Source: an archaeon
Lineage (GTDB): Archaea; Iainarchaeota; Iainarchaeia; Iainarchaeales; 1-14-0-10-31-34
Direction of reading: 5' to 3'
Length of the DNA: 32,000 bases
Assembly (NCBI GenBank): GCA_024277355.1
Contig: JAJRVL010000001.1
Coordinates: 30,001 to 62,000 of the forward strand
Made by a program: the position numbers and the translations under genes. Numbering within the stretch: the stretch's first letter is position 1; each line of letters opens with the position of its first letter. Positions 3,106-28,929 of the stretch are shown one piece after another. The notes below the pieces were generated by a model, which had not been told where the DNA came from, made no database searches, and worked only from the letters and a program-made list of their open reading frames with translations.

Positions 3106-4064
3106 TTTCTGTTATTGTTCCTGCATTTAATTCAGAAAAAACTATTGGAAAAACAATTTCTTCTGTTTTAGAACAAAAAACAGCAAAAGAATTTGAATTA
3201 ATTATAGTTGATGATAAATCAACAGACAATACTGTAAAAAAAATAAAAGAATTTAAAAAAGTAATTTTAGTTGAACAAAAAAAAAATTCAGGTCCCGCAG
3301 TTGCAAGAAATTCAGGAGCAGAAAAAGCTAAAGGAGAAATAATTCTTTTTACTGATGCTGATTGTGTTGCAGAAAAAAACTGGTTAGAAGAAATGATTAA
3401 GCCATTTGAAAACCCTGAAGTTATCGGAGTTCAGGGAGCATATAAAACAAAACAAAATTCTTTGACTGCAAGATTTGTTCAGATTGAAATTGAAGACAGA
3501 TATGATTTAATGAAAAAAAAAGAATTCATTGATTTTATTGGAAGTTATTCAGCAGGATACAGGAAAAAAACTTTTTTAGAGTTTAATGGTTTTAATGAAA
3601 ATTTTCCTGCTGCTTCAGGCGAAGACCCTGAATTAAGTTTTAGAATGGAAAAAAAAGGATTAAAATTAGTTTTTAATTCTAATGCAGTTGTTTATCATTT
3701 ACATCCTGAAGATTTTATGAAATATTTAAAAATAAAGTTTTGGAGAGGTTACTGGAGAATATTAATGTACAAAACACACAAAGACAAAATAATAAAAGAT
3801 TCTTATACTCCTCAAATACTAAAATTCCAGATAATTTTAATGTATGCAATGTTAATTGGATTAATAATAAATCCATTTATTTCAATTAAATTACTTCCTT
3901 TTTTTGGATTTATAATTATTTTTAGTATTACTTTGATTCCTTTTACAGTTAAAGCATTACAAAAAGATTTTTTTATTGGATTAATTTCTCCAGTAATAAT
4001 TTATTTCAGAACAACTGCTTTTTGTATGGGATTGGTTTGGGGTTTAATTAAGGTGAAAAAATGA
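3102..4064 (+). CDS. Family 2 glycosyltransferase with C-terminal membrane segments
   Basis: MISVIVPAFNSEKTIGKTISSVLEQ...IIVDDKSTDNT...DADCVAEKNWL. The C-terminal ~90 aa are hydrophobic. ATGA overlap with the upstream stop. Confidence 0.85.
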   Translation: MISVIVPAFNSEKTIGKTISSVLEQKTAKEFELIIVDDKSTDNTVKKIKEFKKVILVEQKKNSGPAVARNSGAEKAKGEIILFTDADCVAEKNWLEEMIKPFENPEVIGVQGAYKTKQNSLTARFVQIEIEDRYDLMKKKEFIDFIGSYSAGYRKKTFLEFNGFNENFPAASGEDPELSFRMEKKGLKLVFNSNAVVYHLHPEDFMKYLKIKFWRGYWRILMYKTHKDKIIKDSYTPQILKFQIILMYAMLIGLIINPFISIKLLPFFGFIIIFSITLIPFTVKALQKDFFIGLISPVIIYFRTTAFCMGLVWGLIKVKK

Positions 4065-5139
4065 AAGTACTTCACATCTCACACCATTTTTCTCCTTGTA
4101 TTGGCGGAACAGAAAAATATATAATGGATTTATGTTTAGCTTCAAAAAAAAAGGAATTCAGACAGAAGTAGTTTGTCTGAATAAATGTTCAGGCAGTAAA
4201 AAAAAATTAAAAAAAACAGAAACAATTCACGGAATAAAAGTAACAAGAATTCCTTTTATTGACTTAAAAATGTATAAAATTGCATTAAAAGTTTCAGAGC
4301 ATTTAAAAGATTTTGATTTAATTCATGTGCATGGAATAGGTTTTTTTTCCGATTATATTATATCAAAAAGAAATGAACACAAAAAACCAGTAGTAATTTC
4401 AACTCATGGAGGAATATTCCACACAAACAAAAAAAGTTTACTGAAGAAATTTTATCATAATTACTGGTTAAATTATTATTTAAAAAAAGCAGACAAAATA
4501 ATTGCAGACAGCAAAAATGACTTTGAGCAGTTTAAAAAAATTTCAGATAACGTAATTTTAATTCAAAATGCAGTTGATACAAAAAAATTTGAATTCAAGG
4601 GAAAAAAGAATTTCAATAAATGTGTTTTTATAGGAAGAATATCAAAAAATAAAAGAATTGATTTATTGATTGACAGGTTTAGCGAAACACAAGGAAAAAC
4701 ACTGGAAATAATCGGAGAAGACTTTGATAAACTAAGAAAAGAATTAGAAAAAAAAATAAAAGAAAAAAAACTGGAAAAAAGAATCTTTTTCAGAGGCAAA
4801 ATAAGCGAAAAAGAATTAATCAAAAAAGTAAAGCAGTCTGGATTTCATTTGTCTGCATCAGAATATGAAGGCTTTGGAATGGCAGTAATTGAATCAATAG
4901 CTTCAGGAACAATCCCTGTATTAAATAACATTAAAGCTTTCAGAGAATTAATTAAAAACAAAAAAAATGGTTATTTAATTGATTACACAAAAAAAGGATC
5001 ATTAAAAAAAATATTTGAAACAAAAGAATCAGAATTAAATAAAGTTTCTTCTGAATGCATTAAAGAAGCAAAAAATTATTCCTGGAAAAAAAAGGTGAAA
5101 GAAATTGAAAAAATCTACAAGAATTGCATTAATAAATGA
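4061..5139 (+). CDS. Family 4 (GT-B) glycosyltransferase, reading frame interrupted (-1) at an A9 run
   Basis: ATG 4061 (ATGA overlap with the upstream stop, GGTGA SD 4052-4056) encodes MKVLHISHHFSPCIGGTEKYIMDLCLASKKK, a classic GT4 N-terminus, then hits TAG 4169-4171. The remainder ([11 protein letters not shown]...SEYEGFGMAVIESIASG) lies in the -1 frame and equals track ORF 4096..5139. The frames join at A-run 4144-4152. Confidence 0.8.
4156..4182 (+). promoter_or_regulatory. Perfect 9-bp stem / 9-nt loop hairpin just downstream of the GT4 slippery heptamer (candidate frameshift stimulator)
   Basis: ATTCAGACA (4156-4164) pairs perfectly with TGTCTGAAT (4174-4182), loop 4165-4173. It starts 2 nt after the heptamer A AAA AAG (4147-4153). 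Confidence 0.3.
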
Positions 5140-6181
5140 CTATAATGAAAAAACAGGAATAGGAAAATACGCCTGCAACTTATTTAATGAATTAGAAAAA
5201 AAAATCGATATTAAAATGGTTTATTTAGGAAAAAAAGAAAATGAAAACGAAAAAATAAAATTTATAGGAGAAGGAATTAATTTTCCGGTGTTAAAAAAAA
5301 CTCTTAATACTCATTATTATTATCCAAAAAAAATTCCAAAAGAATATGATTTGTTTCATTTAAGCAACCAGTTTATTTCCAAAATAGCAGAAAATAATTC
5401 TCCTTCAATTGTCAGCTGTATGGACATAATTCCTTTTGTACTGAAAAAACATTATCCTTTAGCAATGAGAATTTTTCTTGAAAGATCAATGAAGTCAATG
5501 AAAAAAGCAGAAAAAATAATTTCAATTTCAGATTTCACAAAAAAAGAATTAATTGAAAAGTTTGGAATAGACAAAAAAAAGATTAAAACAGTATATTTAG
5601 GTTATGACAAAAAAATTTTCAGAGAAAAAAACAAAAACAAAACAAGAAAAAAACTTGGATTAGAAAAAGAAAAAACTTATTTGTTAAATGTTGGTTCAGA
5701 AGAAAAAAGAAAAAATGTTAATGAATTATTAAAAGCAGTTAAAGACATGGATTTAACTTTGATTAGAATAGGCGAGCAAAGAACTGAAACAAAAAAATTA
5801 ATTGAAAAAGAAAACATAAACAACGTCTTATACATAAATGATGTTTCTGAGCAAAAACTATCAGACTACTATACTGCAGTTGACTTAAGTGTTTTTCCTT
5901 CAGGTTATGAAGGGTTTGGCCTTCCAATACTTGAAGCAATGGCCTGCAGTTCTCCTGTGTTAACAACAAATCAGGCAAGCATTCCTGAAATAACAGGAAA
6001 AAATCCTATTTCAATAGAAAAAATTAATGAATCTGAAATAAAAGAAAAAATAAAAACAGTTCTGACAAATAAATCCTTACAAAAATCAATTAAAAGAAAA
6101 GGATTAAAACAAGCAGAAAAGTTTTCATGGAAGAAATGTGCAAAAAAAACTCTTGAAGTTTATGAAAGTGTGTTAAAATGA
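5105..6181 (+). CDS. Family 4 (GT-B) glycosyltransferase
   Basis: RIALINDYNEKTGIGKYACNL N-terminus and SGYEGFGLPILEAMACSSPVLTT (GT4 E-x7-E region). TTG start with GGTGA SD (5094-5098) 6 nt upstream. Confidence 0.8.
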   Translation: MKKSTRIALINDYNEKTGIGKYACNLFNELEKKIDIKMVYLGKKENENEKIKFIGEGINFPVLKKTLNTHYYYPKKIPKEYDLFHLSNQFISKIAENNSPSIVSCMDIIPFVLKKHYPLAMRIFLERSMKSMKKAEKIISISDFTKKELIEKFGIDKKKIKTVYLGYDKKIFREKNKNKTRKKLGLEKEKTYLLNVGSEEKRKNVNELLKAVKDMDLTLIRIGEQRTETKKLIEKENINNVLYINDVSEQKLSDYYTAVDLSVFPSGYEGFGLPILEAMACSSPVLTTNQASIPEITGKNPISIEKINESEIKEKIKTVLTNKSLQKSIKRKGLKQAEKFSWKKCAKKTLEVYESVLK

Positions 6182-27880: not shown

Positions 27881-28432
27881 TCAGAAACTGACTTTAGGAA
27901 CTTTTCTGTCTGCTTCTTCTGTTTCAAAGAATTCTTTGTCTGTAAAACCAAACATTCCTGCAAAAACATTATTTGGAAAAGTCTGTTTTGCATTATTAAA
28001 AGCTAAAACTGAATCATTGTAAAATTGTCTTGCATAAGCAATCTTTGATTCAATTCCATCTAATTGTTCCTGCAATAACTTGAAGTTTTCATTTGCTTTT
28101 AAATCAGGATAAGCTTCAGCTACAGCAAACAAAGATTTTAATGCTCCTGTTAACATGTTTTCTGCCTGAGCTTTTTGCTTTAAGTTTCCGCCTGTGTTAA
28201 TTGCATTAGCTCTTGCTTTAGTTACATTTTCAAACACGCTTTTTTCGTGTGTTGCATAACCTTTAACTGTTTCAACTAAATTTGGAACTAAATTAGCTCT
28301 TTTTCTTAACTGAACATCAATCTGACTCCATGCATTATTTACTCTGTTTCTTTTTACAATTAAGCCGTTGTAAACTAAAATTACAAAAACTATAATTAAA
28401 ACTATTACTCCAATTAAAATTAAATCAAACAT
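27881..28432 (-). CDS. lemA: LemA family protein
   Basis: N-terminal TM span, then [47 protein letters not shown] (LemA signature). AAGGGGG SD upstream. Confidence 0.9.
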
Positions 28433-28480
28433 AATAAACCCCCTTTATCTGATAACAAATGAAAGAAATAGAATAAAAAA

Positions 28481-28929
28481 CTATTTATCTGTTAAACGTC
28501 TTCCTTTTATTTCAGGGTTTCTTCTGTCAGGAAGTATTCTTCTTCGATTTTTTCGTCTATTCAAATAATACCTTGCACTTGGAAGGTTATCTCTTGGTTT
28601 AGGTTTATTAAAATCTTTTTTTTCAGTTCCTAAAACAGTTAATTTACTAAAAAATTGTTTTTCTCCTTTTACTCCTTCAATTAATTCAGTTGGAGAAACT
28701 TTTATTCTTCTTTTATCTTTTTTTCTTTGTTCAATACTAATTCTTCTGTCAGGAGAATTTTTTCTTCTATTCTGAGAACCAATTCGTGTATCAGAAGTTA
28801 TTTGAATGTTTTTTCTTATTCCTCTTTTAAATAAAGGAATTTCTTTTTTTTCCCGACAGTAATTACAGAAACAGGTTTTTTTTGTTTTTTTCTTCTTCCG
28901 GTTAAAAGTGCTTTTTTTGGAGAAGGCAT
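28481..28929 (-). CDS. Highly basic hypothetical protein with a CxCxxC motif and two NRR..PDRR repeats; not in the ORF track; frame interrupted (-1) at an A8 run
   Basis: On the minus strand a 131-codon stop-free frame (TCFCNYCREKKEIPLFKRG...SPDRRISIEQRKK...LPDRRNPEIKGRRLTDK, stop at 28481-28483) has no ATG/GTG/TTG near its 5' end. ATG 28929 opens an 18-codon frame (MPSPKKALLTGRRKKQKK) that joins it by a -1 shift at T-run 28876-28883 (A8 on the coding strand). Confidence 0.5.

Follow-up and report, generated by a model that had tools for sequence, protein, structure and literature searches.

Long-read data and low-coverage MAGs typically contain errors in the consensus length of homopolymers; at A6/A7 runs, such errors are very rare in a short-read consensus and uncommon in a good long-read consensus. 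In E. coli, dnaX has, besides its slippery heptamer, an SD-like element upstream and a strong hairpin downstream; the arrangement is conserved and gives two functional products, and the efficiency of frameshifting also depends on a single tRNA-Lys(UUU). In Buchnera and Blochmannia, transcriptional slippage rescues genes with single-base indels in poly-A tracts; these tracts mostly comprise 9–12 A, have been verified in DNA and RNA and are sometimes conserved between species (PMC3017870; reviewed in PMC5009743). In Blochmannia, the verified natural cases amount to 4–8 genes per genome, and genes with a single poly-A indel show no accelerated evolution, with about 30% of the transcripts corrected (PMC3017870). 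In the archaeon Saccharolobus solfataricus, -1 frameshifting in fucA1 takes place at the heptamer A-AAA-AAT with an efficiency of about 10% in vitro and also occurs in vivo; the site is flanked by rare codons, and the break is common to two strains (PMC8211752). Phase-variable poly-A tracts are typically located near the 5' end of genes (PMC2831843).

We analyzed a stretch of 32,000 nucleotides (hereafter the window) from an uncultured DPANN (Iainarchaeota/Diapherotrites-like) archaeon, in which the initial annotation had described three split genes, each rejoined by the same -1 shift or by one added A. The coordinates and frames of the breaks, in the genes for a GT4 glycosyltransferase, for apt and for a basic Cys-motif protein, were found to be as described, and intact orthologs confirm the joined products. 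Each of the three genes is exactly one A short in a poly-A tract as compared to the intact orthologs. The common cause is slippage on the homopolymer, with no dedicated recoding signal, and the sequence comparisons suggest that the deficits are probably a consensus error of the deposited contig.

The window shares with homopolymer consensus errors that the breaks are confined to A/T runs, that they are one-base deletions in otherwise perfect genes with intact relatives, and that they affect about 1% of the runs, but it differs in that one site is only A6/A7 and in that the frame is maintained across the longest runs (A10). Like Buchnera and Blochmannia, it has the features of an AT-rich, reduced genome with dense poly-A, single-base indels in the tracts and no accelerated evolution; unlike them, it has one A6 tract, no conserved tract and a much higher fraction of broken genes, and the host is an archaeon with another RNA polymerase. 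The endosymbiont tracts are usually at least 9 A long, a length reached at site 1 (A9) and borderline at site 3 (A8), while site 2 (A6) is too short by the usual criteria. As in fucA1, an A-rich heptamer divides an archaeal gene into two ORFs, the full-length orthologs are one A apart and a putative stem-loop is located downstream of site 1, but sites 2 and 3 have no convincing stimulators. The A_AAA_AAG heptamer of dnaX is identical at sites 1 and 2, but it is ubiquitous in the genome of the window. Phase-variable contingency loci, which are homopolymeric tracts close to the 5' ends of genes for surface structures (PMC2831843), are resembled by the poly-A tract at codons 28–31 of a glycosyltransferase gene from a glycosylation cluster and by that at codons 16–18 of a small gene, whereas apt does not fit, and since poly-A tracts are so common in the window, no single locus is conspicuous as a contingency locus.

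The 0-frame N-terminal piece of the GT4 glycosyltransferase (4061..4171, plus strand; 36 codons from ATG to TAG) contains the conserved HHFSPCIGGTEKY motif and reads GCT TCA AAA AAA AAG GAA TTC at the break, with the stop at 4169–4171. Site 1 consists of an A9 run (4144–4152) followed by G (4144..4153, plus strand) and offers two in-phase heptamers, A_AAA_AAA at 4144–4150 and A_AAA_AAG at 4147–4153. This run is one base short as compared to the orthologs, which have A9 followed by C in the closest relative, L005, and A8 followed by CA in L017. The body of the protein is encoded in the -1 frame (4153..5139, plus strand; frame open from 4096 to 5139) and has 89% amino-acid identity with an intact ortholog of 359 amino acids (P0122, from L005), and the joined product matches Glyco_transf_4 from residue 14 as well as Glycos_transf_1. 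At the DNA level, alignment of the window with L005 over 3172 nt in this region gives 88% identity and one gap only, located at site 1. The closest 12 matches from other genomes (P0122–P0133, 69–89% identity) are 356–363 amino acids long and contain the full N-terminal motif, and the gene is intact at the DNA level in L005, L017 and L019–L021. The window's own GT4 call (P0121) comprises 335 amino acids, is truncated at the N-terminus and lacks the conserved motif. It is present in the NCBI source only and absent from the Logan assemblies of SRA runs, a pattern that might perhaps fit recent or long-read data.

In apt, the 0-frame piece extends from the ATG at 24828 over 114 codons to a TAA (24828..25172, plus strand) and reads GCA ATA AAA AAG GAG ACA AAG TTT TAA at the break. 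Site 2 is an A6 run (25151–25156) followed by G (25151..25157, plus strand), with A_AAA_AAG in phase (ATA AAA AAG). The C-terminal third is located in the -1 frame (25157..25348, plus strand) and ends at 25348 with a TGA overlapping the GTG of the gene that follows (PNP_UDP_1). The corresponding codons are ATA AAA AAA GGA in L006 and ATC AAA AAA GGA in L001 and L009; over the longer stretch, L006 has GCA ATA AAA AAA GGA GAC where the window has GCA ATA AAA AAG GAG AC, such that L006 equals the window plus one A. The joined product aligns from end to end with the 14 closest orthologs, all of which are intact; at the junction, K109 and K110 do not vary among them, and 12 of the 14 have G111. The junction peptides of both GT4 and apt agree with conserved sequence, as had been claimed. 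With 234.3 bits for NF002633 (cut-off 224) and 229.2 bits for TIGR01090 (cut-off 185.85), the joined product scores above the cut-offs of two NCBIfam equivalogs and is predicted to be adenine phosphoribosyltransferase. The gene is intact at the DNA level in L001–L004, L006 and L009.

The third gene, for a small basic protein, is located on the minus strand. Its 0-frame piece (28816..28929; MPSPKKALLTGRRKKQKK...) starts at an ATG at 28929, stops at 28816 and reads CAA AAA AAA CCT at the break, and a TATA-like TTTTTAAA is found about 25–32 nt 5' of the ATG. Site 3 is an A8 run on the sense strand (28876..28883) with A_AAA_AAA in phase at 28876–28882, and the body of the protein occupies 132 codons in the -1 frame (28481..28876, stop at 28481–28483), a frame for which the ORF listing (minimum 50 amino acids) contains no ATG-, GTG- or TTG-initiated ORF of at least 50 amino acids. 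The gene is restricted to its lineage and forms an insertion between LemA and OPT. No Pfam or NCBIfam match was obtained, and homologs were found neither by a word-indexed search nor in a metagenome scan with a two-sequence alignment. A full HMMER scan recovered one true homolog, and two further matches were disregarded as repetitive low-complexity sequences. The positional ortholog in L018 is one uninterrupted ORF, the N-terminus of which (M..S.K..L..RRKKQ) agrees with the 0-frame start in the window and supports the join at site 3. The region has no Rfam or tRNA match and no notable terminal inverted repeats, and we rejected the possibility that the locus is a non-coding RNA or a mobile element. 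It is taken to be coding because of the open frame of 132 codons in DNA with a GC content of 28%, the positional ortholog and an in-frame internal repeat.

Frameshift-aware alignment of 31 ortholog pairs identified these -1 events only, with no +1 events, no compensated pairs and no other lesions. This method replaced a crude all-against-all frame-switch scan, in which antisense and stop-to-stop ORFs had given rise mostly to artefacts. The orthologs examined share none of the three interruptions; conservation in related loci, by which the initial annotation had proposed to judge them, is thus not seen in the orthologs of apt, of GT4 or in L018, all of which are uninterrupted. In a relative-rate test of GT4, the window branch has 11 amino-acid changes as compared to 21 in L005, with 23 synonymous changes, and an intact neighboring gene is comparable, with 13 and 29 changes. 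For apt, the numbers are 11 on the window branch versus 10, or 6 versus 14, depending on the outgroup. On the window branch, GT4 and apt show no excess of amino-acid change, are otherwise intact and have evolved under purifying selection. The cross-comparison showed no breaks in about 41 kb from L010 and L017, a short-read relative just as rich in runs, and no sequence from the same species was found among the metagenome contigs, using a pattern that allowed A6 to A8 at site 2, or among the protein clusters. A natural frame split was seen in another gene of a related lineage, where it is present in four short-read assemblies.

The genes in the window contain 250 sense-strand A-runs of at least 6 bases, which make up 5.5% of the coding bases, and the lysine codon AAA accounts for 10.6% of all codons. 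All three breaks are inside such runs (p ~1.7e-4), and the link to homopolymers is therefore real. The shared direction of the three breaks carries little weight (p = 0.25), as had been conceded from the start. Of the approximately 36 genes in the window, 3 (8%) are broken, and three breaks per 250 runs fit a per-run error of about 1%. In 30 kb of coding sequence, in-phase A_AAA_AAR occurs 97 times, at 77 distinct sites, inside intact genes; the slippery motif is not avoided. The loss of one base from any Lys-Lys tract automatically creates A_AAA_AAR, since xxA AAA AAA Gxx minus one A is A_AAA_AAG by construction, and given the run lengths the probability that all three breaks are in phase is ~1 x 2/3 x 1/3 = 0.22, so that the in-phase heptamer adds no evidence. 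In a genome this rich in AT, an in-phase A_AAA_AAR at a break should not be taken for a recoding signal.

A programmed -1 ribosomal frameshift of the dnaX type, with regulated ratios of short to long products, would draw on the in-phase heptamers at all three sites and on RNA structure. Downstream of site 1, a hairpin of 11 bp is predicted (4156..4182, plus strand; dG -12.3 kcal/mol), which is the most stable among all 78 in-phase sites. It starts 2 nt past the AAG and 5 nt past A_AAA_AAA, a spacing usable for -1 frameshifting (stimulatory structures are expected at 5–9 nt), and its loop contains the 0-frame TAG. However, the hairpin is equally present in L005, where the gene is intact, and weak or absent in L017, L019 and L021. 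The structure past site 2 is moderate (-7.3, 6.5th percentile) and there is no downstream structure at site 3 (z = -0.3), such that no stimulatory structure is common to the three sites. Also against such programming, the frameshift is missing from every ortholog examined, the 77 further in-phase sites are all in intact genes, and the 0-frame products would be fragments of 36, 114 and 37 residues with no plausible function. Judged from these comparisons, the dnaX-type signal proposed in the initial annotation is not conserved and is for that reason largely refuted, and we consider programmed frameshifting highly improbable.

Deletions that are real in the DNA could have arisen by recent replication slippage and be partially rescued by +A transcripts, through slippage of the RNA polymerase, or by -1 ribosomal slips on A_AAA_AAR, an adventitious rescue of the kind known from Buchnera, Blochmannia and fucA1. 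The heptamers are in phase at 3/3 sites, the hairpin lies 2–5 nt 3' of site 1, the genes are otherwise intact with no acceleration in rate, as in Blochmannia (PMC3017870), A9 at site 1 and A8 at site 3 are near the lengths at which bacterial RNA polymerase slips (PMC1088944, PMC5009743), and the full-length orthologs of fucA1 likewise differ by one A (PMC8211752). But no break is shared with any relative, and there is therefore no sign of maintenance; site 2, with only A6, is poor for transcriptional slippage; and hundreds of equally slippery tracts are in frame, which implies that the organism either slips rarely or tolerates slippage. Moreover, by the criterion of PMC1088944, efficient slippage is unlikely where A9 runs are abundant and not depleted, and 8% broken genes is several-fold more than in the documented natural cases. 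We regard real deletions with partial rescue as possible but unlikely, and it is more doubtful still that the deficits are real and that slippage on poly-A, either of the archaeal RNA polymerase or of ribosomes by -1, preserves the function of the genes, among them that for the purine-salvage enzyme apt. If the deletions are real and unrescued, they might represent phase-variation OFF states of a surface-glycosylation gene and of a small gene with a 5' tract, nascent pseudogenes, or a minor strain variant in the population consensus. The positions of sites 1 and 3 near the 5' ends, the location of GT4 within a variable glycosylation island and the natural split in the related lineage are in line with this. 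The break in apt is not, as it is mid-gene, in a short tract and in a salvage enzyme likely to be important in a DPANN archaeon, and the age distribution would be odd if the same 32 kb contained three independent lesions, all very young, but not one older, decayed pseudogene; we therefore hold unrescued deletions to be quite improbable.

A consensus error, the alternative of one base missing from the DNA record that had also been raised, is the reading that the evidence favors. The genes are unbroken in the closest relatives, whose runs differ by a single base, the lesions are clean, with neither other damage nor accelerated amino-acid change, and all breaks are deletions in A-runs, which is the usual under-calling bias. 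In addition, the 8% of broken genes is an unusual rate for real biology, far above that verified in Blochmannia and also above that in the 41 kb from L010 and L017, and the heptamer is non-specific. Accordingly worded as a mechanism, the length of the homopolymers would have been under-called in sequencing or assembly, each of the three runs would have lost one A, and the organism would hold three ordinary intact genes for a GT4 glycosyltransferase, an adenine phosphoribosyltransferase and a small basic protein. Some observations count against an error. The run at site 2 is as short as A6/A7, the frame is otherwise maintained across eighteen A9 and two A10 runs, and the hairpin at site 1 is the best of 78, with site 2 at the 6.5th percentile. 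Natural single-A frameshifts in otherwise intact genes are also documented, both in AT-rich reduced genomes (PMC3017870) and in fucA1 of S. solfataricus (PMC8211752). The initial annotation had argued from the longer in-frame runs against an artefact; the A10 runs at 3277–3286 and 27126–27135 are indeed in frame, but a per-run error of about 1% still allows for this.

If the deficits are errors, the consequence is one of annotation hygiene, in that three good genes of a MAG have been mis-called as fragments. If they are real, poly-A frameshifts of the endosymbiont type that are tolerated through slippage would extend to reduced-genome archaea, with no new mechanism. If they are both real and rescued, the poly(A) frameshift rescue of insect endosymbionts would have its first counterpart in archaea, with the implication that phenotypic frameshifting has a substantial background level in a proteome in which AAA accounts for 10% of the codons.

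Four overlapping ORF pairs were also considered as candidates for split genes (205-744/738-1613, 8666-9790/9774-10256, 16591-17598/17549-18013 and 22084-22896/22893-23177) and were found to be separate genes. An alternative genetic code was rejected as unnecessary, since all other genes in the window read through with table 11.

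The window has a GC content of 28% and codes for a glycosylation and sugar-nucleotide gene island with GT2 and GT4 transferases, a B12/radical-SAM enzyme, a DegT aminotransferase, dTDP-sugar epimerases and a flippase, followed by apt, a PNP-family phosphorylase, an M48 peptidase, LemA and an OPT transporter. Searches of the window for tRNA genes and Rfam families gave no hits. Among named organisms, the closest are DPANN archaea, namely "Candidatus Diapherotrites archaeon CG10_big_fil_rev..." and MAGs of "Candidatus Iainarchaeum". Syntenic loci match the window at 79-88% nucleotide identity (L001-L004, L006-L009 and L018 for the right half, L005 and L017 for the left half). 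Gene content differs locally where synteny is otherwise kept: a hexapeptide acyltransferase (9774-10256) takes the place of a formyltransferase in L017 (15728-16474). A 204-209-aa ORF without Pfam match lies between the PNP and M48 peptidase genes in L001 (10537-11166), L006 and L009, and is absent from the window (26127-26130). The intergenic segment 31514-31579, upstream of an fn3-domain gene, has translated similarity to the matching region of locus L013 (77% over 22 residues), which could mark either a conserved element with a regulatory role or a mis-placed start codon.

Three genes are split between two frames, each requiring a -1 shift, and re-reading of the sequence and frames confirmed the description in the initial annotation. 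Alignment of the orthologous loci, which had been proposed as a check, showed intact orthologues at all three sites, with one base missing from the window in each case, either in an A-run or at its margin.

The GT4 glycosyltransferase gene starts at ATG 4061 (+) and reads TCA AAA AAA AAG GAA TTC ... TAG in the start-codon frame (A-run at 4144-4152, stop at 4169-4171), while the remaining 328 codons, to 5139, lie in the -1 frame. When joined, the product has a Glyco_transf_4 match that begins at residue 14, and it shares 89% of its residues, end to end, with an intact orthologue of 359 aa. The alignment of the window to L005 spans 3172 nt at 88% identity, and its sole gap is at this site (TCA AAA AAA AA- GGA ATT in the window versus TCA AAA AAA AAC GGG ATT in L005). 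Since the orthologues have K, N, T or R at this position, the deletion removed either an A from a run of ten or the nucleotide that follows A9.

In apt, which starts at 24828 (+), the start-codon frame reads ATA AAA AAG GAG ACA AAG TTT TAA through the A6-G run at 25151-25157, and the last 64 codons, to 25348, are in the -1 frame. The joined protein exceeds the NCBIfam equivalog cut-offs and aligns to 14 intact orthologues without a gap at the junction, where IKKGD is nearly invariant. The L006 sequence, GCA ATA AAA AAA GGA GAC, equals that of the window plus one A, and L001 and L009 have ATC AAA AAA GGA. For both GT4 and apt, the joining of the two halves, as first proposed, is well supported.

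The third gene, for a small basic protein, starts at ATG 28929 (-) with MPSPKKALLTGRRKKQKK, and its body is a 132-codon open frame from 28876 to 28481 in the -1 frame, in which no ATG-, GTG- or TTG-initiated ORF of at least 50 aa was found. The protein had no match in Pfam, NCBIfam or a word-indexed search, and an exhaustive HMMER scan of 1.84 billion representatives recovered one real homologue, at the identical position between OPT and LemA in Ca. Iainarchaeum Meg19_1012_Bin_505 (L018 4941-5357). This homologue is a single unbroken ORF that starts with MVASLKSRLNRRKKQ, which identifies the start and the body in the window as one gene. The L018 sequence is AGA AGA AAA AAG CAA ACG, as compared to AGA AGA AAA AAA CAA AAA AAA (A)CC in the window. 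The Cys motif initially stressed in this protein is not conserved. The nearer relatives L001-L009 do not have the gene, and in them LemA and OPT are separated by only about 100-120 bp; the gene (28481-28929, -) is lineage-restricted and inserted between LemA and OPT. The protein contains an internal repeat, NRRKNxPDRR, in copies 74 residues apart. A TATA-like TTTTTAAA precedes the ATG by about 25-32 nt and suggests a leaderless mRNA.

We searched for further breaks with tblastn and by aligning protein to DNA in 31 orthologue pairs with a frameshift-aware method of our own. Frame events were identified in GT4 and apt only, each -1, with no +1 events, compensated pairs or terminal frameshifts in the 31 pairs. 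The small basic protein brings the total to three breaks among about 36 genes, and their direction is the same. A-runs cover 5.5% of the coding bases and contain all three breaks (p ~1.7e-4), which points to homopolymer slippage by some polymerase or base-caller. In relative-rate tests with an outgroup, GT4 had 11 window-specific amino-acid changes versus 21 in L005, with 23 window-specific synonymous changes, and an intact neighbour gene was similar (13 and 29). For apt, the amino-acid changes were 11 versus 10, or 6 versus 14, depending on the outgroup. Judging from these counts, pseudogene-like drift is absent from both genes, so the breaks are either very young, compensated in function, or not real.

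The initial annotation likened the A_AAA_AAR heptamer at these sites to the slip site of E. coli dnaX. Poly-A and lysine load is extreme throughout, with 336 A/T runs of at least 6 in 32 kb, the longest of 10. The genes contain 250 sense-strand A-runs of at least 6 (111 A6, 82 A7, 42 A8, 13 A9 and 2 A10), and AAA accounts for 10.6% of the codons (1073/10092). The heptamer occurs in phase 97 times in the genes, and those that are intact contain 77 distinct sites. Deletion of one base from xxA AAA AAA Gxx yields A_AAA_AAG automatically, and with these run lengths all three sites would be in phase by chance with a probability of about 0.22. Downstream of the heptamer in GT4, the coding sequence contains a perfect 11-bp hairpin (4156-4182; -12.3 kcal/mol, z = -2.8), the most stable downstream structure of the 78 in-phase sites. 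It codes for IQTEVVCLN, holds the start-frame TAG in its loop and begins 2 nt past AAG, that is, 5 nt past the in-phase A_AAA_AAA at 4144-4150. L005, in which GT4 is intact, also keeps the hairpin, with one compensatory change (G-C to A-U), and L017, L019 and L021 have it in degraded form, which indicates that it is not tied to the frameshift. The hairpin might just as well promote pausing and slippage of a polymerase beside the A-run. Downstream structure ranks at the 6.5th percentile of these sites in apt and is unremarkable in the third gene (A8 at 28876-28883). As read from the sequence, the heptamer is not a signal. We reject programmed frameshifting for practical purposes: the breaks are unconserved, the motif is ubiquitous, there is no common stimulator, and the start-frame products are meaningless fragments.

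The reading we favour, as moderately probable, is that of three homopolymer length errors in the consensus, in which the run length would have been under-counted by one at three sites. It is favoured because 8% of the genes are broken, far beyond verified natural cases such as Blochmannia, with 4-8 such genes per genome and 114-153 coding tracts of at least 9 A (PMC3017870), and above the fraction in an equally run-rich short-read relative, where a cross-comparison of about 41 kb gave no breaks. The three lesions are also "clean" throughout, no gene nearby shows older decay, and all three are deletions. In the protein collection, the organism is represented solely by a record that comes from NCBI alone and has no counterpart in the Logan assemblies, which hints weakly at recent or long-read data. 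If the runs are not errors, the deficits would be genuine: indels that arose very recently by slippage, in genes that are normal in other respects. Against an error, the run in apt is only A6/A7, the longest tracts in the window stay in frame, and there are natural precedents: transcriptional slippage is documented in endosymbionts (PMC3017870, PMC5009743), and, notably, S. solfataricus fucA1 has an A-AAA-AAT heptamer, shifts frame at about 10% in vitro and differs by one A from full-length orthologues (PMC8211752). By the criterion of Baranov et al. (PMC1088944), efficient slippage is unlikely in a genome whose genes abound in A9 runs, which weakens a rescue scenario and leaves the choice between error and mutation unaffected. 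The breaks are of low interest unless read-level data show that the deficits are real.

A frame split was also observed in the CG10 Diapherotrites relative, in a methyltransferase-like gene. This gene forms a single ORF of 262 aa in the window (27080-27868) and of 257 aa in L006, and in the relative it is split into 84 and 166 aa in two frames (L001 12212-12992, also L002-L004), with a +1 shift needed near TTG AAA ACC (12446-12455 of L001). Four short-read assemblies, drawn from three archives (JGI, ENA and NCBI), show the identical split, and natural frame splits thus occur in this clade.
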